A stretch of DNA of 64,000 nucleotides from assembly GCA_964487615.1 (NCBI GenBank), contig CAZARM010000001.1, positions 32,226 through 96,225 of the forward strand, written 5' to 3'. The stretch is from an uncultured Candidatus Saccharibacteria bacterium (lineage in GTDB: Bacteria; Patescibacteriota; Saccharimonadia; Saccharimonadales; CAZARM01). Every line of letters starts with the position of its first letter. Positions within the stretch are counted from its first letter, which is position 1. A program made the translations under genes and the position numbers. Below the pieces are notes generated by a model. That model did no database searches. It was not told the DNA's origin and saw nothing but the letters and a program-made list of their open reading frames with translations. Shown here piece by piece: positions 3,086-61,935 of the stretch.

Positions 3086-4219
3086 ATGGATTTCAATAAA
3101 ATAGCCCTCCAAAAACATAAACAATTGCGTGGAAAAATCGAGATTACTCTCAAAGATAAGTTAAACTCGCCGGACAAGTTGAGCACCTATTACACGCCTG
3201 GCGTAGCGGCGGTGTCTAGTTACGTGGCTGAGCACCCCGATGAAGCCCGGGACTACACCTGGCTCAACAACTCGGTGGCGGTTATTTCGGATGGATCAGC
3301 TGTTCTGGGGCTTGGAGATATCGGTCCGTATGGTGCATTGCCGGTTATGGAAGGCAAAGCCATGCTATTCAAGCACTTCGCTGGGATCGATGCTGTGCCA
3401 ATTGTGTTAGATGTACATACGGCTGATGAGATAGTCAGTGCAGTGCTTGCAATCGCACCGAGTTTTGGTGGCATAAATCTGGAAGACATTGCGGCTCCGA
3501 TTTGTTTTGAGGTCGAAGACCGCGTCAAAGCCGCGCTCAAGATTCCTGTCATGCACGACGACCAGCATGGGACAGCTGTAGTTGTGCTGGCTGGGCTTAT
3601 AAACGCTATGAAAGTAACTGGTCGAGATCTTAAAGATTGCCGGATTGTCACTGTCGGTGCCGGAGCTGCTGGCACTGCTATTATGAAGTTGTTGCATAAA
3701 TTTGCCGCCCCAGAGATTTTGGCGGTGGATAGCAAGGGCATTATTTCTGCCAAGCGGACAGATCTAAATGATGACAAGAAAAAGCTACTGAAGTTTACAA
3801 ATAAGCCCAATCTCAGCGGATCATTACAAGACGCTTTGAAAGGTGCTGATATATTTATCGGTGTCTCCAAGGCAGGCCTACTAACTGTCGATATGGTTAG
3901 ATCAATGAGTAAGGATCCAATAATTTTTGCTATGGCTAACCCAGTGCCAGAGATCATGCCGGACGAAGGCAAGATAGCCGGTGTTGCCGTCATGGCTACT
4001 GGTCGTAGTGACTTTCCCAATCAAGTAAATAATGCCCTGGCTTTTCCGGGTATTTTCCGTGGTGCACTAGACAATCGTGTCAGCAAGATCACTGATGAGC
4101 ACAAGATTGCTGCCGCTGAGGTTATTGCTAGCCTCGTAGACAACCCTACCGCAGAACAAATTATTCCCAGCGTTCTGGACGACCGTTTAGTCCCGGCCAT
4201 TGCGAAGGTGATCACCTAA
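3086..4219 (+). CDS. maeA: NAD(P)-dependent malic enzyme (short form)
   Basis: YTPGVA, SDGSAVLGLGDIG, DDQHGTAVV, GAGAAG and NQVNNALAFPGIFRGALD motifs. Start moved to ATG 3086 (MDFNK...); the ORF-track start at 3053 is also possible. Confidence 0.85.
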   Translation: MDFNKIALQKHKQLRGKIEITLKDKLNSPDKLSTYYTPGVAAVSSYVAEHPDEARDYTWLNNSVAVISDGSAVLGLGDIGPYGALPVMEGKAMLFKHFAGIDAVPIVLDVHTADEIVSAVLAIAPSFGGINLEDIAAPICFEVEDRVKAALKIPVMHDDQHGTAVVVLAGLINAMKVTGRDLKDCRIVTVGAGAAGTAIMKLLHKFAAPEILAVDSKGIISAKRTDLNDDKKKLLKFTNKPNLSGSLQDALKGADIFIGVSKAGLLTVDMVRSMSKDPIIFAMANPVPEIMPDEGKIAGVAVMATGRSDFPNQVNNALAFPGIFRGALDNRVSKITDEHKIAAAEVIASLVDNPTAEQIIPSVLDDRLVPAIAKVIT

Positions 4220-5817
4220 CCAATAACGCGGTAGACTTCGTCAATCGTAGTTTGGCCGTCTATAACCTTGAGTATGCCGTCCTGGAGCATAGTGCGCATA
4301 CCACTTTTAGTCGCGGCTTCTTCTATTTGCTGCGAGGTAAGGCCCTCGGTGTGGTGCTCTAGTAAATCACGTATTGCTCCAGCCATTAGAAACTGTTCGC
4401 GCAGGGCAACTTGGCCACGGAAGCCATAAGGGTTGTCCTCTGAAGCTCCTGGCTTGTAGAGCTGCAAGTTAGTGATGTCAGGCTTAGGTATGTTGGCTGG
4501 CAGGCTATCGAGGACCTCATGAACTTTGCGCTTTACGGCCTCATCGGGCGTGTATGCTTGTTTGGTGTTGTCATCCAGTTTGCGTACCAAGCGTTGAGCC
4601 ATAACTAGACGTATTGCCGATACAAACAGCGGATTCTGACCAATAATATCGGTTAGGCGCGTTAGGGCGGCCGCAGCCGATGAAGCGTGGAATGTAGACA
4701 GCACTAAGTGACCAGTTAGTGCTGCCTGTAGTGCTGTTTTGGCGGTGTCTGGGTCGCGGATCTCTCCAACCATCACAATGTCGGGGTCTAGCCTTAGCAC
4801 AGCCCTTAGTTTCTCAGCAAAACTGGTCTCTTCGGCAGTTTTAGTGGACACCGAAATCTGGGTAATACCTGAAAACTGGTACTCGACGGGGTCTTCTATA
4901 GTAATGATTTTACGTTCTTCATTATTGAGTGAATTTAGCATGGAGTACAGCGTTGTGGTCTTGCCCGATCCAGTGGGACCGACCACCATCACCAGACCGC
5001 TCGGCTTGGCGATGATGTCGTCGACGTGCTGGCGTTCTTCTGGAGACAATCCTAATTTGTCGAGCTTGTACATGTCCTGGTCCATATTGAACAAACGCAT
5101 CACGACATCCATGCCATTGATAGTAGGCACCGTTTCCAAACGCAAATTAATATCGACTTCTTTACCGTCTTGCATGCGCAAATGTTGAGAGATGTGGCCC
5201 TGCTGGGCGTCGGGTGCAGAGGTAGAAACATTACCGGCGCTGGCAACTGCAGAAATAAGTATTCGATATTTTTCCAGGCTAATGTGAGCAATCGGGTGCA
5301 ACACACCGTCCATCCGGAATCGGATGCGCACATATTCGCGTTGAGTTTCTATGTGTATGTCTGAGGCTGCCAAACGGTGAGCCTGTTGCACCAGGTAAGC
5401 CAGCATGTCATCAGCTCGAACTTGTTCGAGTGTGGCGGAAACCGTCTTGAGCAATTCCTCGGTTCCAGCGGTGTTCACGGCGATGTCCTGGTAGACAACT
5501 TGCTTTGGCGGGTCATATAGTTTCATGTACTCCCTATAGCCCGTGTCGGATATCAAGGCAAATGCAATACGCTGGTCCAGGAAGCGGCCTCTAAGCCCCG
5601 TCATAGTTTGCTGGGAGGTGGTGTTGGTCACTCCAAAGGTTATGTGGCTCTCGTCCAGGACGAGCGGTATGACGCGCAGATCGTATAGATCCCGCATGGG
5701 CATCAACGCCTTATACAGCGTCTTTTGAATTTGCGACGTATCAACATAATCTAACCCCAAAATCCGGGCTCGGCGCTGGGTAGCCAGCTCCTCGTCGCGT
5801 CTAGCATCTTGACTCAT
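4216..5817 (-). CDS. pilB: Type II/IV secretion ATPase (PilB/GspE family, type IV pilus assembly ATPase)
   Basis: Walker A GPTGSGKTTT, ITIEDPVEY, and Walker B/His-box region. N-terminal GspE_N-like domain. 533 aa. Confidence 0.85.
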   Translation of the reverse strand: MSQDARRDEELATQRRARILGLDYVDTSQIQKTLYKALMPMRDLYDLRVIPLVLDESHITFGVTNTTSQQTMTGLRGRFLDQRIAFALISDTGYREYMKLYDPPKQVVYQDIAVNTAGTEELLKTVSATLEQVRADDMLAYLVQQAHRLAASDIHIETQREYVRIRFRMDGVLHPIAHISLEKYRILISAVASAGNVSTSAPDAQQGHISQHLRMQDGKEVDINLRLETVPTINGMDVVMRLFNMDQDMYKLDKLGLSPEERQHVDDIIAKPSGLVMVVGPTGSGKTTTLYSMLNSLNNEERKIITIEDPVEYQFSGITQISVSTKTAEETSFAEKLRAVLRLDPDIVMVGEIRDPDTAKTALQAALTGHLVLSTFHASSAAAALTRLTDIIGQNPLFVSAIRLVMAQRLVRKLDDNTKQAYTPDEAVKRKVHEVLDSLPANIPKPDITNLQLYKPGASEDNPYGFRGQVALREQFLMAGAIRDLLEHHTEGLTSQQIEEAATKSGMRTMLQDGILKVIDGQTTIDEVYRVIG

Positions 5818-5879
5818 ATACTCACATTATAACCATAAGCATGTGCACGTACTAGTGCTGCTCTGCTAGGATTAAACGT

Positions 5880-6377
5880 ATGCAACGCCAATTGGTCATC
5901 ATAGCGCATAATTTGCGTAGCACTCATAACGTCGGTTCCCTGCTGCGCACCGCTGAGGGCTTAGGTGTGACCGGTGTTTTCTTGACAGGCTATACACCTT
6001 ACCCGGGTATTCCCGGTGATGTGCGCTTACCACACGAACACAAGAAGCTGACGGCTCAGATTCATAAAACCGCACTAGGCGCTGAGGCATCTGTACCGTG
6101 GAAACACGCAAACGACATTGAGCCAGTGTTAGCAAGCTTGCGAAGAAATAACTTCAAAGTGGTTGCCTTGGAGCAGCACTCCGGGAGCATACCCTTGCTG
6201 GACTATCAGGCACCAGCAAAGCTAGCGCTGATTGTTGGACGTGAGGTGGAAGGAATTGAGCCGGAAGTTTTGGAGATGTCTGACGCCATTGTAGAAATTC
6301 CAATGATGGGGCAGAAAGAATCATTCAACGTCGTTCAAGCCGCCGCGATGGCACTCCACGATTTGACATTCCACTAA
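5880..6377 (+). CDS. SpoU/TrmH-family RNA 2'-O-methyltransferase (TrmL-like size)
   Basis: IAHNLRSTHNVGSLLRTAEGLGV SPOUT motif, 165 aa. Confidence 0.75.
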   Translation: MQRQLVIIAHNLRSTHNVGSLLRTAEGLGVTGVFLTGYTPYPGIPGDVRLPHEHKKLTAQIHKTALGAEASVPWKHANDIEPVLASLRRNNFKVVALEQHSGSIPLLDYQAPAKLALIVGREVEGIEPEVLEMSDAIVEIPMMGQKESFNVVQAAAMALHDLTFH

Positions 6378-6410
6378 ACAAGAGTTGATGATAGAATAAT
6401 CACTAGAACT

Positions 6411-7298
6411 ATGCTGTCTAAAACAAAAAAGGTCTCTGAGCATAAACGCAACGGACGCCACCATAGCCACACGACTCAGTACAAACAGATTTACTGGCCG
6501 TATTTGCCTTTGGTTGTAGTGGCCATATTTATGTTGGCTATTTCTATCCTGCCCAATCGTGGCACCAGCCACACGCTAGCTTATGCTACCGAAATGAGCC
6601 GGGAAACACTGCTCCAAGCCACTAATGGCCAACGTGCCAGCAACAATAAGGAAAACCTCACCTTGGAAGCTGAGCTAAACAAAGCCGCTCAAGCCAAAGC
6701 AGAAGACATGGCCAAGCGAAACTACTGGTCACATCAAACACCAGAGGGTAAAGACCCCTGGATCTTTATTGACCAGACCGGATACAAATACTACAAAGCC
6801 GGCGAAAACCTAGCCTACGGCTTCGTGGACAGTGATACGACCGTCAAAGGCTGGATGAATAGTCCCACCCACCGTGATAATTTATTAGACAGTGCATTTA
6901 CCGAAGTTGGCTTTGGCTTTGCCAACGCCAACGATTACCAGAAATCTGGTCCCGAAACTATCGTAGTCGCAATATATGGTCGACCCCAGAGTCTAGGCAG
7001 CACTGTATTAGCCGCTCAACCCTCGTCGACCAATCCTCCAGTCACCGCCTCACCGAGCAAAGAAGTAACCAAAATTGAAGTTTTAAGTGGTAGTAAACTG
7101 ACCTGGGCACCGTTTGCAGTCGGCATTTTGAGTGGTGTAGCAGTCACTGGCTTGTTACTCAATCACGGTCTGCGTCTGCGCAAACTGCTTCGCAAGGGCG
7201 AGAGGTACTTTGTAGCTCACCCCATCCTAGACATCGCACTCATAGTTATTGCCTTCTCCTGTGTAGAACTCACCCGCACGATCGGCTATATCCATTAG
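6411..7298 (+). CDS. CAP/SCP/YkwD-domain protein with an N-terminal TM anchor and C-terminal hydrophobic segments
   Basis: CAP signature pieces: NG.RA...L.....L..AAQ..A.DMA..NYWSH.TP.G.....I...GY.....GENLAYG...W.NSP.HR.NLL...FTEVGFG. Confidence 0.7.
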   Translation: MLSKTKKVSEHKRNGRHHSHTTQYKQIYWPYLPLVVVAIFMLAISILPNRGTSHTLAYATEMSRETLLQATNGQRASNNKENLTLEAELNKAAQAKAEDMAKRNYWSHQTPEGKDPWIFIDQTGYKYYKAGENLAYGFVDSDTTVKGWMNSPTHRDNLLDSAFTEVGFGFANANDYQKSGPETIVVAIYGRPQSLGSTVLAAQPSSTNPPVTASPSKEVTKIEVLSGSKLTWAPFAVGILSGVAVTGLLLNHGLRLRKLLRKGERYFVAHPILDIALIVIAFSCVELTRTIGYIH

Positions 7299-35211: not shown

Positions 35212-38070
35212 TTACGACACTTTGGTTGAGATGCGGCGGTACAACTTGGGGTAGACGAACGTCAGAGCCAAATACACCATCAGCAATAGGCCAAAGTTAA
35301 TATGCAACAAGCTGCTGATAGCCACCACAGCTACCAGACCTGCTAGCCAGGAAAGGGCTTTGGCGCGGCTAACTTTTTGGCGTAAAAACTCGGCTCCGAG
35401 ATAGTAGTATGGGAAAACCGTGACAACCAGTAGCGTGTTGGACAACAGGCCAAAGATCAACACCACAGCCAAACCTTCCCAGAATGGACTGGCCAGCGCT
35501 AGCGGGATAAGCGATACAACGGCCGTCATGCTGGTGGCAAACAACGGACGGAAACGTTCTTCCAGAGCGGCTACTGCGGCATCAATGGCCCCGGCGCCCT
35601 CATGCCGTTTCTGGTTAGCAAAGTCTGTCAGCAGAATGGTGTTTTTGATGCTCAGGCCAATTAGAGCAAAGAAGCCCAGCATAGTGAAAAAGCTGATGGC
35701 GTTATCAGTCAGATTAAGACCCAGCATAATGCCAAAGAAGCTAAACGGAATGGCCATGAAGATCAGGAGGGGCTGCAGCAAGGAGCGGAACTGGAAGGCC
35801 AGCAGGATAAACATGACGACTAGCAGTATTGGGAAGGCCAAAGCCAAAGTGCGGAAGGAGTCTTGGTTTTCTGATTCGAACCCTATATTGTAATTGATCT
35901 TGTCGGTTGACAGACCAAACTGACTGAGCTTGGTGTTATTGAATTCTTTTTCCAAACTATTTTGGGCCAGGGTGACGAGAGTGGTGGTATCGGTGCCATC
36001 AAAATTGGCGGTTACCGTTACCACTGGCCGGTTATCAACCCTTAAGTATTGGTCAGGACTGGAGACGTTGACGTTTACGAAGTGAGCGGTTGTGCCATTT
36101 ACCCTTATGAGTTCAGTGTTTTTCATGTAGCTTTCATAGGCGGCGGCGGCTTTGAAGGCGTCCTGACGATTAGTCGAATCAATTTCAACAGTAAAGGCCG
36201 CAGAGGGGGGGCCAATGTCAACTTGGGCTACCGAGACTCGGGCGGCCTTAAAGTCACCGTCATACTTCTCCTGCAACTGTTTAACCAGTTCCGGCGACGT
36301 CACTTCGCGCTTATTGTAATTAGTCAGTTCAATTTGCTCGCTGGCCGTTTGGGCATTGCCTGTTCCATAGTACGAAGAATGTACAAAGTTTTGTCCGACC
36401 ACCTGGGCGGCCAGCTGGTCAGCTTGCCCAGCAATTGCCTGGGCCTCCTCCACGCTGGTGCCTTGAGGAAAGTTAATGGCCAATGCTAAGCCGTTGGTGT
36501 CCTTGGTGGGGGGGAAGATGTTAAACACCACATTTTTGGCTATCAACCCACCGGCCAATACAAATCCTAGGCCGATGAAGACAGCTGTTAAGCCAACACC
36601 GAACAGTTTCTTGCGTGAGCCCCGAGCCCATAACATCGGTCGGGTAATGAAGCCTGCGACCTTGGCTTCAAAGCCCGCAGCTACTTCTTTGACCCCTTGC
36701 TTGCCCATTTGCTTTTTGCCCAGTAGCACGAAGCGTGCAAAGAACGGAATGAAGATTAGAGCCACCAGCAAGCTGATAAGCAAAGATATGATGATGGTCA
36801 CTGGAATCGCTTGGATGAAGTCGCCCAAGATTCCACCGACGAATAGTAACGGCACAAAACTCAAACAAGCTGTTAGCGTCGCTGCAACCATCGCCCGGCT
36901 AACTTTCCGGGTGGCCGTCCGTACGGCTTCGCGGGCATCTTTTTCTTTGCCCCTCGCCGCATCGATGGCTTCAACCATAATAATCGTGTCGTCGACGATT
37001 AAGGCCAGCCCCAGAATAAGTGCAAACAGGGTTATGACGTTCAACGTATAGCCGATCAAGTACAGTACGCCCAAACTGGTCACCAGCACGGTGACCATTG
37101 AAACTACGGTGATTAGCGAGGCCCGGATGGCAATAACTAACGAGCCTACTATCAAAACGGCCAGCAAGCCTTCGAGTAACACGCGCTGGAGCTCGCTGAG
37201 GCTGTCTTTGATGCTGGGCGCTGAACTGGCGCTCACCTCACCACTGTAGTCAGCAAATGCCGGATCATGTTTCAGCTGGTCTAGAACGCCGCGGACTTGT
37301 TCATCAAATTTTATGACATCAGCACCATCGGTTTTAGTGACACCAATGATTATCGAATTGAAGAAGTTGGTCTGCTCCTGCTTCTCGCCGTAACGGTCAA
37401 AGCTACGCTGAATGTCCGTTGCGTGGCCAGTTGATACGTCAGTGGCAGTTTCAAACTGGGTTTTTAGAAAAACCGATTTAACTAGCTCGGGTTTGTGGTC
37501 ATTCAACCATTTAACGGCCGACTCAGCCTTTGCGCTGGTATCGGCAACTGAAGCAGTTCCCTTTGTATTGAAAAATGAGACTGCCGCATCAATCGGTTGG
37601 ACATCGCCACCAGTGGCGCCAAAATACAGCACATCGTACTGCGCTTGGACAGAAGCTGGTAAGACGCCCGAATCCTTAACCGCTTGCTCGAAAGCCTTGG
37701 TGGCGACGCTGGAGTCTACATTTTCCTTGTACTGCAGACTGATGCTAAAGAAGTTGTCAGTACTCTGACCCTGGACCGTGCTAACCCCCGCCTGATGAGT
37801 GGCAATCTCGGTCATCGGTTTAACCACGTCTTGGTCGACCCTGGCCGGATCATTTACGAAATAAGTGCCATTAACAATGGCGAAGGGCACGTTAACACTC
37901 GGGAAACCTTCACGTCTGAGCAAAGTCGTATAACTGGCAATACCGAACACGGCGATGGCTAGCCATATGAGCGCTGTGAGTTTTGGTCGGTCAAAGAAAG
38001 CGGTGGTCAGTTTTGGTAGGAATTTATCACGCGGTTGCTTGTTGGTTGGCTTGTGTCGTCGCAGTAACAT
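35212..38070 (-). CDS. RND-superfamily (MMPL/HAE-like) transporter, 952 aa
   Basis: Two repeats of large extracytoplasmic loop plus 6 TM segments. Typical RND topology. Confidence 0.7.
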   Translation of the reverse strand: MLLRRHKPTNKQPRDKFLPKLTTAFFDRPKLTALIWLAIAVFGIASYTTLLRREGFPSVNVPFAIVNGTYFVNDPARVDQDVVKPMTEIATHQAGVSTVQGQSTDNFFSISLQYKENVDSSVATKAFEQAVKDSGVLPASVQAQYDVLYFGATGGDVQPIDAAVSFFNTKGTASVADTSAKAESAVKWLNDHKPELVKSVFLKTQFETATDVSTGHATDIQRSFDRYGEKQEQTNFFNSIIIGVTKTDGADVIKFDEQVRGVLDQLKHDPAFADYSGEVSASSAPSIKDSLSELQRVLLEGLLAVLIVGSLVIAIRASLITVVSMVTVLVTSLGVLYLIGYTLNVITLFALILGLALIVDDTIIMVEAIDAARGKEKDAREAVRTATRKVSRAMVAATLTACLSFVPLLFVGGILGDFIQAIPVTIIISLLISLLVALIFIPFFARFVLLGKKQMGKQGVKEVAAGFEAKVAGFITRPMLWARGSRKKLFGVGLTAVFIGLGFVLAGGLIAKNVVFNIFPPTKDTNGLALAINFPQGTSVEEAQAIAGQADQLAAQVVGQNFVHSSYYGTGNAQTASEQIELTNYNKREVTSPELVKQLQEKYDGDFKAARVSVAQVDIGPPSAAFTVEIDSTNRQDAFKAAAAYESYMKNTELIRVNGTTAHFVNVNVSSPDQYLRVDNRPVVTVTANFDGTDTTTLVTLAQNSLEKEFNNTKLSQFGLSTDKINYNIGFESENQDSFRTLALAFPILLVVMFILLAFQFRSLLQPLLIFMAIPFSFFGIMLGLNLTDNAISFFTMLGFFALIGLSIKNTILLTDFANQKRHEGAGAIDAAVAALEERFRPLFATSMTAVVSLIPLALASPFWEGLAVVLIFGLLSNTLLVVTVFPYYYLGAEFLRQKVSRAKALSWLAGLVAVVAISSLLHINFGLLLMVYLALTFVYPKLYRRISTKVS

Positions 38071-38092: not shown

Positions 38093-39868
38093 TTAGGTTG
38101 CTATGTCAAACTTCTGCAATTTCTTCTTGTTGAGCTCGGAGCGCTTGCCTCGCTGCAATTCCAGTAGCTGGGCATAGATGCCACCACTCTTAGATAGTTT
38201 AGCAGGTGAACCAATTTCGTCGATAGTGCCGTTTCTGAGCGTAATGATTTGGTCAACGTGACTGATGGTACTTAAGCGGTGGGCAATAATGATGGTGGTA
38301 CGTCCGCGCATTAGTCGTTCCAGAGCTTCCTGGACCATGCCCTCGGACCGGCTGTCTAGACTGCTCGTGGCTTCGTCCAAGATTAAAATTGGCGCGTCCT
38401 TGAGCAAGGCCCGGGCTATGGCAATGCGCTGTTTTTGACCTCCAGAAAGTTTCAGCCCACGCTCACCAATTTCGGCATCGTAACCATCATCTAACTTGCT
38501 GATAAACTCGTGGGCATTGGCGGCTTTGGCGGCCGCAACAACCTGTTCTTCCGTAGCACCGTGGTGTGCGTAAGAGATATTTTCTCTAATCGTTCCGGAA
38601 AATAGGGCTGGCTCCTGAAAAACCACGCCGATGCCCTGGCGAAGGCTATTCTGGGTGACTGATTGGATGTCTTGACCATCAATAGTAATATTGCCTTTTT
38701 CTGGCTCATAAAGCCTCAGTAGTAGGTTAGTTAGGGTGGTTTTGCCCTCGCCACTCTCGCCCACCAAGGCAATTTTGGTATCTGGCTCAATGCTTAGCGT
38801 TATATCGTGTAATACCGGTTGTTTTTGATCGTAACTAAAGCTAACGCCGTCAAATTCAATCTGACCCTGCTTGACCTGAAGCTTTTTGGCATTCGAATGA
38901 TCTGATATTTCTGGCCGCAGATTCATAACCTCGAAGTAGTCACGGCTATCGGCTACGGCCTTCTGGGTATTTTCTACCAAGAAGCTAATAGTAAAGATTG
39001 GGATGCGGATTTGCTGCGATAGCAATATCAGGGCAACTGCCACGCCCGGCGTATAAACACCATGGGCAGCCTGCAAAAATATAAACAGATAGACAAAAAA
39101 GAACGTTACGTTTAGCACCAGCCGGCGGCGGACATCGCGGGTATGCCAAAAGTTTGATTGCGGGCGGTTGATCTCGACCGCCTTTTGGAGCCTAGCGGTA
39201 AAGAAGTTTAGTTCCCGCTTTTCTGTAATGAAGCTTTTGACGACCTTGACCTGACCGATGGCTTCGGCAAAGCGACCAGTGGCGATGTCAGACTGCAAGT
39301 TTTTTTCAGCCTGGTACTGTTGCCAGGTGTTGCTGGTTCTAACCGTTAGCCAGATGTATATCGGGTACAGGGCTAATAGCAGCAGCGCTACTGGCCAACT
39401 ATAGTACGCCACCACAACCAGCGAGAAAATCGTCGTTAGAATAAACTGCAGGAAGTTATTGCTCATCATTTGCATGAAATTAGCAATCTGCAGAATAGAG
39501 CGATTTAAGCGGTTGATGATTTTGCCTGACAATTCGGTGTCAAAATAACGCTGGGGTAGGCTCAGCAAGTGTTCATAGTAGCGAACTGATAGGATTTTAA
39601 TGAGCTTGGCAGACATCTGATCGCCTAGGTAACCACCGACATTGTTAAGCACTGTGCCCATGACGTCCAACACAAAGATTCCTAAGGCTATCAAACCCAA
39701 GTAACGGAAGGAGGCGGTAGACCCTTTGCGGATTTCATCAATCGCCCAACCGCTCAAGATTGGCAGGAGCAAGCCGCTGAGACTAACCAGCACCATGATA
39801 ATGCTGATACCAACGTAGTAGCCGCGCAGCTCACTGGCCGATTTTAAAATCTTGATAATGTGTTTCAT
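38093..39868 (-). CDS. ABC transporter, fused permease/ATP-binding (type I exporter, MsbA-like)
   Basis: 6-TM N-domain. Walker A GESGEGKTT, ABC signature LSGGQKQR, Walker B ILILDEATS. Confidence 0.9.
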   Translation of the reverse strand: MKHIIKILKSASELRGYYVGISIIMVLVSLSGLLLPILSGWAIDEIRKGSTASFRYLGLIALGIFVLDVMGTVLNNVGGYLGDQMSAKLIKILSVRYYEHLLSLPQRYFDTELSGKIINRLNRSILQIANFMQMMSNNFLQFILTTIFSLVVVAYYSWPVALLLLALYPIYIWLTVRTSNTWQQYQAEKNLQSDIATGRFAEAIGQVKVVKSFITEKRELNFFTARLQKAVEINRPQSNFWHTRDVRRRLVLNVTFFFVYLFIFLQAAHGVYTPGVAVALILLSQQIRIPIFTISFLVENTQKAVADSRDYFEVMNLRPEISDHSNAKKLQVKQGQIEFDGVSFSYDQKQPVLHDITLSIEPDTKIALVGESGEGKTTLTNLLLRLYEPEKGNITIDGQDIQSVTQNSLRQGIGVVFQEPALFSGTIRENISYAHHGATEEQVVAAAKAANAHEFISKLDDGYDAEIGERGLKLSGGQKQRIAIARALLKDAPILILDEATSSLDSRSEGMVQEALERLMRGRTTIIIAHRLSTISHVDQIITLRNGTIDEIGSPAKLSKSGGIYAQLLELQRGKRSELNKKKLQKFDIAT

Positions 39869-39989
39869 TATCTAAAGCTTAACAGGCTAAGTTAGCCTTG
39901 CCTACCTGTTTTTGATTGACTAATCTTCCAAAACTTACGAACAGCTATGTGTTCTTAAACTTTGGGAGAAGACAGATGTGAGAAGTTTT

Positions 39990-40470
39990 ATAGAAAAGAA
40001 AGGGAGCGAAGGCTCGACCAAACATTTTCTAACCTGCGTCAGTTATCTCCTTGTAGAACCAGTGGGTCCCCGACCTCGCGACTTTGCGCGGGAGCAGATG
40101 GCTGCGAGGTCGGGGACACCTGCTGGGGTGGTAAGAGCGTGGACTGCTCTCTTACCGCATGGGGCCTAGGGCCTCACGAATGGGCCTGGCGGTTGTTCAC
40201 ACGCATCTTTCCAGCGGCGGGTGCTGAAACGACGGGGATCACACCACCAGGCACCAAATGGAGCTATAAATTACAGCTCTCGAACTTGACCAGTGGTCTC
40301 TCGTAGCGCCGTTGTACGGGCAGTTTCGCATATCTGCGTCGCTGACACTACGAGAGACTCACCGGGCTGGTGGGGCGAAATCGGGAAACGCCAGGTCGGG
40401 GCGAACGGCCTGCAGCGACAGAACACGGACGAAGTTTCTTCGTACGCCTGGAACTCCATCTCTGGAATAC
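39990..40470. ncRNA. Candidate structured ncRNA locus (strand unresolved). About 58-60% GC, ORF-poor, with several long perfect helices.
   Basis: Helix 40065-40079/40103-40117 (15 bp); the same arm can also pair with 40391-40405. Helix GGTAAGAG/CTCTTACC at 40130-40157. Helix 40291-40307/40349-40367. Weak resemblance to RNase P CR-II (GGGGUGGUAAGAGCG) and to ACAGAAC. No canonical P4, and no tmRNA tag ORF found. Confidence 0.3.
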
Positions 40471-40480
40471 GCTTCCCTTG

Positions 40481-40551
40481 CTCCGCCAGTAGGACTCGAA
40501 CCTACAACCTCCTCACCTGAGTGAAGTGCTCTGCCATTGAGCTATGACGAA
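40481..40551 (-). ncRNA. tRNA-like element. Acceptor stem, D-arm (GCTC-AATGGCA-GAGC) and T-arm (GTAGG-TTCGAGT-CCTAC) are canonical. The anticodon region instead forms a 6-bp/4-nt hairpin (CTTCAC-TCAG-GTGAGG). No 7-nt anticodon loop can be drawn. CCA is not encoded.
   Basis: Folded manually from the reverse complement. The U1-A72 acceptor stem has two G-U pairs. It is either a tRNA pseudogene or the tRNA-like module of the adjacent GC-rich RNA. Confidence 0.35.
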
Positions 40552-40960
40552 AGGAACTTTTAACTACATCGTAGTCTATGATGACTATTCACGTACTCGC
40601 GAACAAACATCATAGACCACTGGGCAAAAAATTCCTGCCGGGCTATCCTAGTTCAAAAAATAACTTAAATCACATCTGTCAAAGTACGTTTCAGGAGCCA
40701 AAACTCAACCGAAACAGCTTCATTTATACCACAAGAGCCAACTTCTATCAACTATAATTACCCACTAGGGACGCTCTAGACAGCACGGATGTCACGCCTC
40801 TCCACTATAGTGCCAGCCATTTTCTCCACCAGAAGCGGACCAGGCTGTACAACAAGGTACTGCTTGGGAGTATCGGAGTTGACAAATGGCTGTGGTGCAA
40901 AGAGATTAGCGGTGCTGTTGGCTCCTGCCAGCAGGCAGGCTAATCGGTGGAGAGGCATGA

Positions 40961-42700
40961 CTACCAGCCGCCACCACCGCCTCCACCACCACCACCTCCG
41001 GAAAAACCACCGCCGCCGCTGCCCGAGCTACTAGAGCTAGTGGAGGCCGAAAAGCTACTATTCATGGCCGAGACACCGGTTGTTAAAGTGTTCGCAAATG
41101 CCGCCATCTGGAACGTCGAGAAGTTGCCGTCGTACCAGCTTGGCGGTTGTTTATAGATATCCTCAAATTGCTTGGACCAGGACTTCTCGACGCCCAAGGC
41201 CACTGCAAATGGCAGCAGCTTTTCAAACAGCTCAACTGTTTGGGACGGTGCGGCATACGGCCGGTCTACGCTTTGAAGCATCTTGAGCCGGTCTTTCTCG
41301 GCCGTCTTCATATATAGTTCCAAGCCTTTGACTTTTTCATAAGCCTCCACGCCGGCGTGACTGCGGCGGCGCATTAGGCCAGCATAGAAAATTGCGCTTA
41401 ACATAGCCCAGATTAGCCCTAAAATCCAGCCCCAACCCTGGCCAGTGACAAACAGCAACACAAAAGAACCCACTGCTGTAGCAATCAGCCAGTTACGCAC
41501 GTGAGTCGGCTTGTCTTCGAACAGACCATAATCTTTAGTTAGCTTGGACTTGAGGTCTCTCCGAATAACGGTAACTGTGGTGTACATAGCTGTTCGATCG
41601 ATTTTTGAGATACTCTGAAGTGCGCCTTTAGTGGCGGGGCTAAACAATGTCCCCAGCAAGGACGACTCATGGGGCTTAAGACCAGCGAAATCATCATTGA
41701 CTAGCTCCAGGGAAAATTCGCGTTTTTTAAACACTAGCGCCTGGGTCTTCTGTTCGTCATGGATCTGGATGTAACCACGCACAGCTAGATCAATGATCGT
41801 GGCAGACAGATCTCGGCCATCTACCCGGTAATCCATCAGCAGCCCGACTTCCGCTGGCGACAGACCCTTGGGTGGTTCGTACTCCGGCACAATTACGCCA
41901 CGACCTTTGTAATCTTTGCCGTATTTGCGCCACACATTAAAGCACACCAGGCTAGTAATCACACCGGTGGCTATGCCTACCAGCTGCCACCAGTTGTCCC
42001 GCAGCCAATCATTACGGTCGCGCGGTGTGATCAAGCCCTTTTGTAAAGGCGAGGCGACTGTTAGCGTCTCAAAAGCCTCTAAACGACGGCTAGCCTCAAA
42101 TTTATAGCCTCTATCAGTTCTTGTCAGCTGGCAAGCCTGTTCTGTACTGCCAAGTTTTCCGGTGTAGCATGCTGGTGTGGGCAAGCCCTGATCATTCCAA
42201 GACGCTGGGAAGATAACTTCACCAGCGACTTTTTCAAACGGTTGACCCCACTGATTACCATTTACGTCCCAGTACCACTCGTCAAAGCCGTTCTGGTAAT
42301 TGACTACACCTATCATTTCGTACTTGATCTTGTAGCTATGATCACCAGTGATGGTTTGATTAGCATTGCCTATCTTTAGAACTTTATTATTAGCCTGTTC
42401 GTAGCTGGTAAAAGGTTCGCTGTTACCATCACGCTCAATTGATGTGACGTGCAATTTCGCTGAGTGGCCTTGATAATCAGTTGGTATAGCCCGGTAGATT
42501 CCGTGGTTATAATCGCTGAAGGTCAGATGAATGTCTTCTTCTACCTGCAAACGGCCGCCATGAACGTCGTTAAACAATTCGTAGCGGCCGTCGAACTCGT
42601 GGATGACAAAGTCATTAACGTCCGCGTCGGCACGGCCAGGTAATAGAAATAGCACTGACGCAATAAACGTCAGGGTCAGGAGTGCGAATAGCTTTTTCAT
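40961..42700 (-). CDS. DUF2207-like membrane protein with a signal peptide, two TM helices and a Gly-rich C-terminal tail
   Basis: Domain order and the terminal SGSGGGGFSGGGGGGGGGGGW tail are typical of the DUF2207 family. Confidence 0.55.
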   Translation of the reverse strand: MKKLFALLTLTFIASVLFLLPGRADADVNDFVIHEFDGRYELFNDVHGGRLQVEEDIHLTFSDYNHGIYRAIPTDYQGHSAKLHVTSIERDGNSEPFTSYEQANNKVLKIGNANQTITGDHSYKIKYEMIGVVNYQNGFDEWYWDVNGNQWGQPFEKVAGEVIFPASWNDQGLPTPACYTGKLGSTEQACQLTRTDRGYKFEASRRLEAFETLTVASPLQKGLITPRDRNDWLRDNWWQLVGIATGVITSLVCFNVWRKYGKDYKGRGVIVPEYEPPKGLSPAEVGLLMDYRVDGRDLSATIIDLAVRGYIQIHDEQKTQALVFKKREFSLELVNDDFAGLKPHESSLLGTLFSPATKGALQSISKIDRTAMYTTVTVIRRDLKSKLTKDYGLFEDKPTHVRNWLIATAVGSFVLLFVTGQGWGWILGLIWAMLSAIFYAGLMRRRSHAGVEAYEKVKGLELYMKTAEKDRLKMLQSVDRPYAAPSQTVELFEKLLPFAVALGVEKSWSKQFEDIYKQPPSWYDGNFSTFQMAAFANTLTTGVSAMNSSFSASTSSSSSGSGGGGFSGGGGGGGGGGGW

Positions 42701-61860: not shown

Positions 61861-61935
61861 TGGGGAGTGGCCAAGTGGTAAGGCACCAGGTTCTGGTCCT
61901 GGCATTCGGGGGTTCGAGTCCCTCCTCCCCAGCCA
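61861..61935 (+). tRNA. tRNA-Gln (anticodon CUG), CCA encoded
   Basis: Manual cloverleaf: UGGGGAG acceptor (U1-A72), D-arm GCC-AAGUGGUAA-GGC, anticodon arm CCAGG-UUCUGGU-CCUGG, T-arm GGGGG-UUCGAGU-CCCUC, then G-CCA. Near-identical architecture to E. coli tRNA-Gln. Confidence 0.9.

Follow-up and report, generated by a model that had tools for sequence, protein, structure and literature searches.

RNAs of the GOLLD, ROOL, OLE, raiA and HEARO classes are multi-hairpin molecules of several hundred nucleotides, GC-richer than their surroundings and composed of conserved and variable domains; GOLLD and ROOL often adjoin or enclose tRNAs, and the function of all five classes was not known at discovery. 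A long-range 5'-3' fold-back architecture is found in the mRNAs of hok/sok-type (type I toxin) systems, and tRNA-like processing modules are met in longer transcripts, as in MALAT1/mascRNA and in tRNA-linked transcripts that RNase P and RNase Z cleave. RNase P RNA carries the universally conserved P4 helix, formed by the conserved regions CR-I (GGAAAGUCC..) and CR-V (ACAGAA..CGGCUUA). Here a putative RNA unit that shares features with each of these systems is described. It is located in a 64,000-nt stretch of an uncultured Candidatus Saccharibacteria bacterium (GenBank assembly GCA_964487615.1, contig CAZARM010000001.1; the whole stretch is referred to as the window), between the gene of an MsbA-like ABC exporter (38093–39868, minus strand; domains ABC_membrane and ABC_tran) and a DUF2207 gene (40961–42700, minus strand).

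The initial annotation had flagged positions 39990–40560 as an unassigned structured RNA adjoining a tRNA-like element. From the sequence, this region is best read as the interior of a larger minus-strand unit, sense to the flanking genes and predicted to extend from ~40719 to 39869 (~850 nt); the GC-rich cluster is real, and the full feature is larger (~39870–40751). The presence of a real minus-strand structured RNA belonging to an ABC-exporter-linked family is regarded as very probable. The more specific reading preferred here, i.e., an undescribed family of long structured leader/processed RNAs with lineage-specific interiors ahead of an MsbA-like ABC exporter, is given a probability of roughly 0.55.

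The gap between the two genes measures 1,092 nt; no open reading frame (ORF) longer than 114 aa was found on either strand, the gap ORFs gave no Pfam matches, and no protein-family trace was detected in any frame, in line with the earlier description of ~1.1 kb devoid of a credible ORF. A hidden protein gene was rejected, as the window unit contains no CxxC motif or micro-ORF in any frame and has no Pfam match. GC content is 0.58–0.60 across 40000–40499 against 0.41–0.53 in the flanking genes and a window mean of 0.492, which agrees with the excess of ~10 points noted before; this is the sole long GC-rich gap in the window. Minimum free energy (MFE) of 39990–40480: −208.1 kcal/mol (z −5.1) for the plus strand, −206.3 kcal/mol (z −6.8) for the minus strand; none of 100 shuffled sequences folded as well. 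Among the helices listed in the initial annotation, that at 40130–40157 (GGTAAGAG/CTCTTACC) is present; the 15-bp helix at 40065–40079/40103–40117 exists with a perfect length of 14 bp (40066–40079/40104–40117); its alternative partner, placed at 40391–40405, was located at 40389–40401 with 12 of 13 bases complementary instead of perfect pairing; the perfect 17-bp helix at 40291–40307/40349–40367 proved to be a perfect 11-bp core (40296–40306/40348–40358) within an imperfect 21-bp helix. The near-identical CCCCGACCUGGC and CCCCGACCUCGC are each able to pair with GCGAGGUCGGGG (40401–40390, 40115–40104 and 40079–40068, minus strand), one pairing being a local 14-bp hairpin and the other reaching across 310 nt; this competition could be a structural switch or chance.

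The unit is predicted to consist of the following features, given in the order of transcription:

40751–40723, minus strand: sigma-70 promoter; −35 TTGATA (40751–40746), −10 TATAAA (40728–40723), 17-nt spacer, TG at 40731–40730; predicted transcript start near 40719
40715–40688, minus strand: leader hairpin M1, GUUUCGG-UU-GAGU-UUUG-GCUC-CUGAAAC; folded alone −10.4 kcal/mol, z −2.4
40680–40670, minus strand: 5' arm of the closing stem, GACAGAUGUGA, with a conserved CUUU just before it; perfect 11-nt complement of 39971–39981
40620–40571, minus strand: AU-rich 22-bp hairpin between the 5' arm and the cloverleaf, containing UCUAUGAUG; −30.1 kcal/mol, z −7.8
40551–40480, minus strand: tRNA-like cloverleaf (Rfam tRNA model, ARAGORN, own fold)
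40477–40059, minus strand: GC-rich core of seven predicted hairpins (the locus of the initial annotation)
40477–40469/40391–40383, minus strand: predicted core helix
40365–40344/40310–40290, minus strand: predicted core helix, 21 bp
40279–40272/40268–40261, minus strand: predicted core hairpin, ending in AGCUCCA and followed by a GGUGCC.. stem
40256–40223/40215–40181, minus strand: predicted core helix, 30 bp
40178–40158, minus strand: predicted core hairpin
40156–40130, minus strand: predicted core hairpin
40126–40101/40082–40059, minus strand: predicted core helix, 22 bp
40019–40002, minus strand: hairpin M2, GGUCGAGC-CUUC-GCUCCC, 21 nt before the 3' arm
39981–39971, minus strand: 3' arm of the closing stem, UCACAUCUGUC; stem extended by AAGUU/AACUU (40666–40662 with 39987–39983)
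39969–39924, minus strand: pyrimidine tract UCUUCUCCC and an 18-bp hairpin with GGAAGA
39898–39869, minus strand: last 30 nt before the ABC start; hairpin AGGCUA/UAGCCU (39898–39884), then GUUAAGCUUUAGAUA; the start codon AUG occupies 39868–39866

The comparison set comprised 13 junctions upstream of the orthologous ABC gene, the window and locus L002 counted; contigs of the orthologues were anchored on the ABC protein (74–78% identity), and L002 was found through DUF2207 synteny. Eight units from seven junctions were available (two of them in L002; the other loci are L032, L037, L038, L040 and L046), and the ABC protein is 68–78% identical to its orthologues. A frame of short elements recurs in the units. 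The promoter, TTGnnn-17-(TG)TAnnnT, is placed 41–56 nt before the 5' arm in L032, L040, L046, L038 and both L002 units, L037 being the exception (164–203 nt); just 8 instances of the pattern exist in the 128 kb of both window strands, and the unit promoter was missed by a generic promoter scan because T was required at hexamer position 6. The motif CUUUGACAGRUGU at the 5' arm is conserved; from GACAGRUGU.. onward a perfect complement follows 390–710 nt downstream, and the resulting closing stem has 10–13 bp, the distal variable bases of which change together:

Window: 5' arm GACAGAUGUGA, 3' arm UCACAUCUGUC
L032, L040 and L046: 5' arm GACAGGUGUGAU, 3' arm AUCACACCUGUC
L038: 5' arm GACAGGUGUAAUU, 3' arm AAUUACACCUGUC
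L037: 5' arm GACAGGUGUU, 3' arm AACACCUGUC
L002, unit 1: 5' arm AACAGGUACA, 3' arm UGUACCUGUU
L002, unit 2: 5' arm GACAGAUGAAGA, 3' arm UCUUCAUCUGUC

Covariation of the closing stem (7 units): 7 of 12 pairs were changed on both sides, and 95% of the cells were paired; the covariation score was reached by 0 of 500 shuffles, and slid registers paired at 30–44%. One arm pair (L002, unit 1) contains a G-U wobble. A hairpin with the motif GGUNGAG(C)-loop-GCUCC(C) stands twice per unit, once ahead of each arm. M1 (YGGUNGAG..GCUCCYR) occupies the same place in L038, L002 unit 1 and L032/L040/L046; covariation is seen at its outer pair, which is C-G in five units and U-A in L002 unit 1 and L037. M2 is found at the same relative place in L038 (3880–3919) and L037 (3881–3921), and in a weaker form in L032/L040/L046. 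In the window, both strands, GGTNGAG-N(3-50)-GCTCC occurs only twice, i.e., as M1 (40710–40694) and M2 (40019–40003); elsewhere the motif is concentrated in the units (L038:3313–3343 and 3880–3919; L037:3881–3921; L002:5801–5816). The conserved sequence within the M stems suggests a protein or tertiary contact site. A pyrimidine tract (UUCUCCC, CUUCUUCC or CGUUCUC) directly follows the 3' arm in every unit.

The frame (promoter, both M hairpins, arms, pyrimidine tract) is conserved even where ABC identity falls to 68%, which bears on the alternative of a non-functional spacer, i.e., a decaying gene remnant or neutral DNA with hairpins derived from local inverted duplication. A spacer would agree with the lack of a detectable homologue of the window core, with several perfect stems, a possible sign of recent origin, and with the dispensability of the unit in half of the relatives; it is nevertheless quite improbable in view of the conserved frame, the folding z values of −5 to −7.8, the retention of 1.1 kb of non-coding DNA in a streamlined genome, and the absence of a protein-family trace in any frame.

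Evidence at the RNA level was obtained from the units of L032, L040 and L046, which are alignable (82–86% identical). RNAalifold gave 214 pairs, 12 of them with compensatory changes on both sides, and many further pairs were kept via G-C/G-U/A-U changes; the alifold energy of 400 noncoding columns was −188.0 kcal/mol in the sense and −131.3 kcal/mol in the antisense direction, with 63 and 12 G-U cells, respectively. Such an asymmetry of energy and G-U content is expected of a transcribed, selected RNA and not of a DNA palindrome. With a covariance model built on the L032-type core, L038 was found weakly (18 bits, E ~0.01–0.05), the matched stem having an entirely different sequence with fully compensated pairing; the same model gave no match on the window. 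By eye, the AGCUCCA hairpin and GGUGCC stem of the window core are similar to L032 and L038, a likeness that the covariance model did not confirm. Whole-unit MFE of the window: −345.5 kcal/mol (35 G-U) on the minus strand vs −320.2 kcal/mol (18 G-U) on the plus strand.

Distribution of the unit: an ORF-free gap of 0.7–1.4 kb (700–1,360 nt) precedes the ABC gene in the window, L002, L032, L037, L038 (= L039), L040 and L046, whereas in L033, L036, L041, L042, L043 and L045 the preceding gene abuts or overlaps the ABC gene, and no trace of the unit was detected at these six junctions. The unit is accordingly present at 7/13 and missing at 6/13 junctions, the two states being interleaved on a star-like neighbour-joining tree of the ABC protein. 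The filled gaps are GC-rich relative to their own genomes, with z −7.4 to −7.5 where folded. One comparable locus with DUF2207 synteny was found in the genome and metagenome collections, namely L002 (= L020), the others having different neighbours; its gene order is PheT-DUF2207-[1.36 kb without genes]-ABC, and its ABC protein is 69% identical. L002 contains two complete tandem units at 5744–7100, both equipped with a promoter, an M hairpin and covarying arms of their own:

L002, arms at 5830 and 6344: unit 1, with a micro-ORF and a tRNA 3'-half-like fragment
L002, arms at 6490 and 7016: unit 2, with a tRNA-like element and GC-rich hairpins, as in the window

Perfect inverted repeats that enclose a 0.4–0.7-kb segment and change together on both sides could also mark a DNA-level element (a miniature inverted-repeat transposable element (MITE), an inverton, or an eroded integrated element targeting the tRNA-like site), with the hairpins as by-products. 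Interleaved presence and absence among close relatives, the tRNA-derived fragments (the window cloverleaf; L002 5940–5990 and 6592–6671), a GC content different from that of the host genome and the swap of micro-ORF cassettes between L032 and L046 are in keeping with this alternative. It is improbable, however, on the following grounds. The unit is single-copy, and its location is always the PheT/DUF2207-ABC junction; the arm motif was found nowhere else in 424 kb of collected loci, the unit standing only ahead of this ABC gene, and hairpin arms and arm motif are unique in the window, without dispersed copies of the repetitive extragenic palindromic (REP) or MITE kind. No target-site duplication or direct repeat was seen at the arm boundaries and no recombinase or transposase within 10 kb on either side. 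Conservation reaches beyond the arms to the promoter, M1 and the pyrimidine tract; the five units that can be oriented by a tRNA-like module or micro-ORF all face the same way; the interior shows compensatory substitutions and a strong G-U strand bias, and a G-U wobble occurs in one arm pair. A scan of viral contigs with the 5' arm gave 68 matches, an estimated chance level for a 15-base pattern, and only one of the 68 had even a one-mismatch partner arm downstream. A MITE or other transposon with terminal inverted repeats is disfavoured: 11-bp arms are present, but neither further copies nor target-site duplications were found in the 64 kb of this genome examined and the 424 kb of collected loci. 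An inverton is likewise disfavoured by the single orientation of the orientable units, the promoter outside the arms and the missing recombinase within 10 kb. The initial annotation had considered that homologues might show its helix arms as terminal inverted repeats of a transposable element; inverted repeats do occur in the homologues, formed by arms different from those listed. Single copy number, fixed locus, absence of target-site duplication and transposase, and strand-specific signals make the arms better read as the closing stem of an RNA than as transposon ends.

The tRNA-like element scored 52.4 bits with the Rfam tRNA model (gathering score 29), and its cloverleaf was obtained as the MFE structure when folded alone. 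A 7-bp acceptor stem, the D arm, the T arm GUAGG-UUCGAGU-CCUAC and discriminator G are kept, as are the nucleotides of the tertiary contacts (G18G19 and UUCGA); CCA is not encoded. ARAGORN reported 'tRNA-???' with a 2-base anticodon and a 6-nt anticodon loop; the 'anticodon' arm is closed, with a loop CUCAGG or, in the MFE structure, a UCAG tetraloop, and GUU is missing. A functional tRNA would have a 7-nt anticodon loop with U33 and a readable anticodon; because of the 6-nt loop, the 2-base anticodon and the tetraloop closure, the element was filed as tRNA-like/pseudo-tRNA. Its closest database tRNAs are phage tRNA-Asn (79.5% identity), and in a BLAST search of the region against phage genomes this element alone gave matches (tRNA-Asn). 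L002 unit 2 contains a counterpart at the same relative place (6592–6671; three-way junction of acceptor stem, T arm and one long arm; z −3.2), preceded, as in the window, by an AU-rich hairpin with the same 9-mer. The module is restricted to these two units; a tRNA 3'-half-like fragment is found at ~5940–5990 in L002 unit 1, and ARAGORN detected no tRNAs in the gaps of related loci (L001–L019, L032, L033, L036). The module resembles those of MALAT1/mascRNA in that acceptor, D and T arms and the T-loop/D-loop contacts are kept in a non-decoding element inside a longer transcript; it differs in that its cleavage is a proposal and that it occurs in the window and L002 unit 2 only. The sole canonical tRNA of the window is an ordinary tRNA-Gln (CUG) at 61861–61935, plus strand (61.6 bits).

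Known RNAs were searched for with Rfam 15. At the gathering score, no family except the tRNA match was found over the gap; with E ≤ 10 and lax filters over 39850–40800 (951 nt, both strands), cmscan gave the tRNA match and noise, with nothing for RNase P, transfer-messenger RNA (tmRNA), group I/II introns, 6S RNA, signal recognition particle RNA, GOLLD, ROOL, OLE, raiA or HEARO. Five homologous loci gave no match to RNase P, tmRNA, Intron_gpI or Intron_gpII at E ≤ 1, and the window with nine related loci (gathering and E-value modes) gave the tRNA-like element and noise only. At the sensitivity of these tests, RNase P RNA, tmRNA, group I/II introns and the known large RNAs are excluded; this leaves the identities first suggested unsupported, and the strong folding, the lack of an Rfam family and the tRNA-like neighbour uphold the more cautious description as an unassigned structured RNA. 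The fallback of a novel noncoding RNA is where the evidence ends up, given the missing Rfam match and the family comparison.

A divergent form of a known RNA (RNase P RNA of the candidate phyla radiation type, tmRNA, or a group I intron associated with tRNA-Asn) would share with the unit its size and GC spike. RNase P-like strings exist: GGTAAGAGCG (40130) and ACAGAAC are both on the plus strand, a strand that the other evidence does not favour; the strings of the initial annotation (GGUAAGAGCG, ACAGAAC) are present on the strand opposite to that of the predicted RNA. Its failure to place a canonical P4 was reproduced: the 5' strand of P4 (GGAAAGTCCGGGC) has no match with ≤3 mismatches in 39870–40960, and the whole window gave 16 such matches vs 15 expected by chance. 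RNase P RNA was therefore rejected (no Rfam match, no P4, strings on the wrong strand, locus missing at 6/13 junctions). tmRNA was rejected, since ARAGORN found none in the window, the Rfam tmRNA clan was negative and the tRNA-like element is a contiguous cloverleaf, unlike the tmRNA domain, which is assembled from the 5' and 3' ends of the molecule and accompanied by a tag reading frame. Absence from 6/13 orthologous junctions together with unconserved sequence cannot be reconciled with an essential housekeeping RNA.

Group I introns are frequent at position 35/36 of tRNA-Asn genes in Patescibacteria, as recently described, and some tRNA group I introns of this phylum escape RF00028 and standard tools (PMC13011429). 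The window locus is similar to these introns in phylum, in the tRNA-Asn-like gene and in a GC-rich structured RNA missed by annotation. The described introns, however, interrupt the anticodon loop at 35/36 and have a group I match or fold (PMC13011429), whereas the cloverleaf at 40551–40480 runs on without a break and has no GUU, and the structured RNA begins past its 3' end and not inside the anticodon loop. RF00028, by which the group I core (P3-P7-P8, G-binding site) would be recognised, gave nothing on the window gap (E ≤ 10) or on five homologous loci (E ≤ 1), a result to be read with the knowledge that some Patescibacteria introns escape this model (PMC13011429). A group I intron in a tRNA gene was rejected on the continuity of the cloverleaf, and a divergent known RNA of any of these kinds is highly improbable.

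Although the interiors of the units differ between lineages, high GC content and folding well beyond chance are constant among them. Searches of the window gap by blastn and nhmmer against all collected loci revealed no interior similarity and only the ~40-nt arm region. Cys-rich micro-ORFs of 43–51 aa with several CxxC motifs are present in four units, and the strong Shine-Dalgarno sequence of each, GAGGAGGUGAU, lies half within a hairpin; Pfam similarities were sub-threshold only (zinc-ribbon, DnaJ CXXCXGXG):

L032:3712–3843, micro-ORF
L040:3610–3765, micro-ORF
L046:2157–2312, micro-ORF
L002:6130–6282, micro-ORF (unit 1)

The interiors of L037 and L038 contain neither an ORF nor a tRNA-like module. 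In L032 and L046, the ABC proteins of which are 98% identical, the micro-ORF cassettes are unrelated and the RNA frame is otherwise conserved, which suggests cassette replacement. Hammerhead-like strings (CUGAUGAGG .., CUGACGAG .. GAAA) were noticed in long interior hairpins (L032:3640–3660, the equivalents in L040/L046, L038 ~3470–3500); Rfam ribozyme models gave no match on them.

With hok/sok-type mRNAs the unit shares a covarying long-range helix that closes a structured RNA of a few hundred nucleotides and, in L032, L040, L046 and L002 unit 1, a small ORF with a half-buried Shine-Dalgarno sequence. It differs in that the micro-ORFs encode Cys-rich, zinc-ribbon-like peptides and not hydrophobic toxins, that an antisense RNA is not evident, that the window unit has no ORF, and that the closing helix lies away from the extreme 5' end. 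A tentative extension, less likely than the leader family itself, is a modular RNA gene class with a conserved frame hosting interchangeable structured cargo; the cargo would be the tRNA-derived module in the window and L002 unit 2 and polymorphic Cys-rich micro-ORF cassettes elsewhere, would be swapped even at 98% ABC identity, and the unit would be tandem-duplicable and gained or lost as a whole.

Position and signals of the unit would suit a cis leader: by prediction, it lies on the same strand as and immediately upstream of the ABC gene, with no terminator or second promoter in between, so that a 5' leader of the exporter mRNA is its most probable identity; covariation was found in the closing stem, in the outer pair of M1 and in the core of L032/L040/L046. 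Transcription from the unit's own promoter would run through into the ABC gene and give a 5' leader of ~850 nt. The closing stalk (window: 11 bp and a coaxial 5-bp helix; L032: 12 + 10 bp) may serve as an RNase III site, the cloverleaf is a plausible substrate of RNase P, RNase Z or the CCA enzyme, and folding or processing of the leader could alter the stability or translation of the exporter mRNA. An effect on the exporter is suggested because the pyrimidine tract and the 5' end lie against the ABC translation-start region. In the whole-unit MFE structure, the transcript 5' end UGAAGCU (40722–40716) pairs with AGCUUUA (39879–39873), five nucleotides before the ABC AUG, which is similar to the fold-back inhibition of some mRNAs; in L037 and L038, the predicted partner strand of the pyrimidine tract, GAAAGAAG, is the ribosome-binding region of the ABC gene. 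Action of the unit in cis on the exporter is given somewhat less than an even chance.

Complementarity of the 5' end and the ABC start is also readable in L032, L002 and L038. A near-perfect palindrome CTTAACATGTTAAG was observed 8–10 nt before the ABC start in units of distant genomes, and a degenerate version of it at 39892–39878 of the window; it is a possible operator, a MarR-family gene being located a few genes downstream in those loci. Positions of the palindrome:

L032:3975–3988
L040: ~3909–3922
L046:2445–2458
L002: ~7083–7096

Alternatively, the unit may give rise to one or more stand-alone stable noncoding RNAs, excised at the closing stalk and the cloverleaf and acting in trans, e.g., as a protein-binding scaffold via the twin M hairpins, with the proximity of the ABC gene being incidental. 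This is unlikely, although several features would suit it: the conserved promoter of its own, a closing stalk like the processing stalk of rRNA operons, the conserved sequence in the M1/M2 stems, which suggests a bound factor, the two complete tandem units of L002, each with its own promoter, and a terminator-like hairpin with U-run after the unit of L040. On the other side, the 424 kb of collected loci contain no unit elsewhere than ahead of the ABC gene, a terminator is missing in the window and in most units, and the interiors lack conservation from one lineage to another, unusually for a trans RNA with a fixed partner. The L040 hairpin (L040:3840–3891, between the 3' arm and the ABC gene) is the only one of its kind; L032 and L046 possess the same hairpin without the U-run.

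Several points weigh against the reading as a leader family. The promoter, both ends of the RNA and its joint transcription with the ABC gene are predictions, and the cis-regulatory mechanism is one that we infer. In the whole-unit MFE structure, other pairings win over the cloverleaf. A DNA-level element would equally be expected to show flanking inverted repeats that covary. The GC-rich sub-region, taken alone, folds equally well on both strands, so that the strand call depends on the cloverleaf, promoter, M1/M2 and arms; no alignable relative of the window's GC-rich core was found among the collected loci, and its structure is consequently a thermodynamic prediction. Half of the orthologous junctions lack the unit, which makes it dispensable for the exporter, and the terminator-like hairpin with U-run of L040 would fit a separate RNA gene.

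Neighbouring genes: in the window, the ABC gene is directly followed by a gene of an AcrB/MMPL-type transporter (952 aa, 35212–38070, minus strand), which is missing in the related loci, where genes of NUDIX, FKBP, glutaredoxin, thioredoxin-reductase-like and MarR proteins follow; FKBP, TrxB-like, MarR, cupredoxin and GDPD genes are found further on in the window. At the C-terminus of the DUF2207 proteins a long glycine run is followed by Trp (..GGGGGGGGGW; window 40961–41030, minus strand; L002:5700–5743; L032:3150–3200); a proline-rich ORF on the opposite strand is an ORF-calling artefact due to this glycine run.

Among the systems outlined at the outset and other long RNAs, the unit comes closest in its workings to a long structured leader or an ornate large RNA. 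It is similar to GOLLD, ROOL, OLE, raiA and HEARO in being long, multi-hairpin, GC-rich and composed of conserved and variable parts, and differs from them in the absence of a match to their Rfam models, in conservation confined to the frame while the interior turns over, and in its fixed place before one chromosomal ABC exporter gene without phage context. No description of this RNA family was found in Rfam 15 or the searchable literature, and the comparative evidence for it is clear, consisting of the covarying closing stem, the repeated M hairpin and the strand-specific compensatory substitutions. Its design, with a frame and swappable interior, twin M hairpins, an anticodon-less tRNA mimic and presence or absence of the whole unit, is unusual; should the modular interpretation be true, the unit would amount to a cassette platform at the RNA level, or to a processed ribonucleoprotein scaffold, without a described counterpart. 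Retention of 0.7–1.4 kb of structured non-coding RNA in the tiny, tightly packed genomes of Saccharibacteria implies a function. GC-rich, ORF-free gaps in these genomes can conceal new RNA classes. With genetics newly feasible in Patescibacteria (for Saccharibacteria, a transformation and Tn-seq system; PMC10633639), the present unit offers a concrete, testable entry into RNA-based regulation or processing in this phylum.

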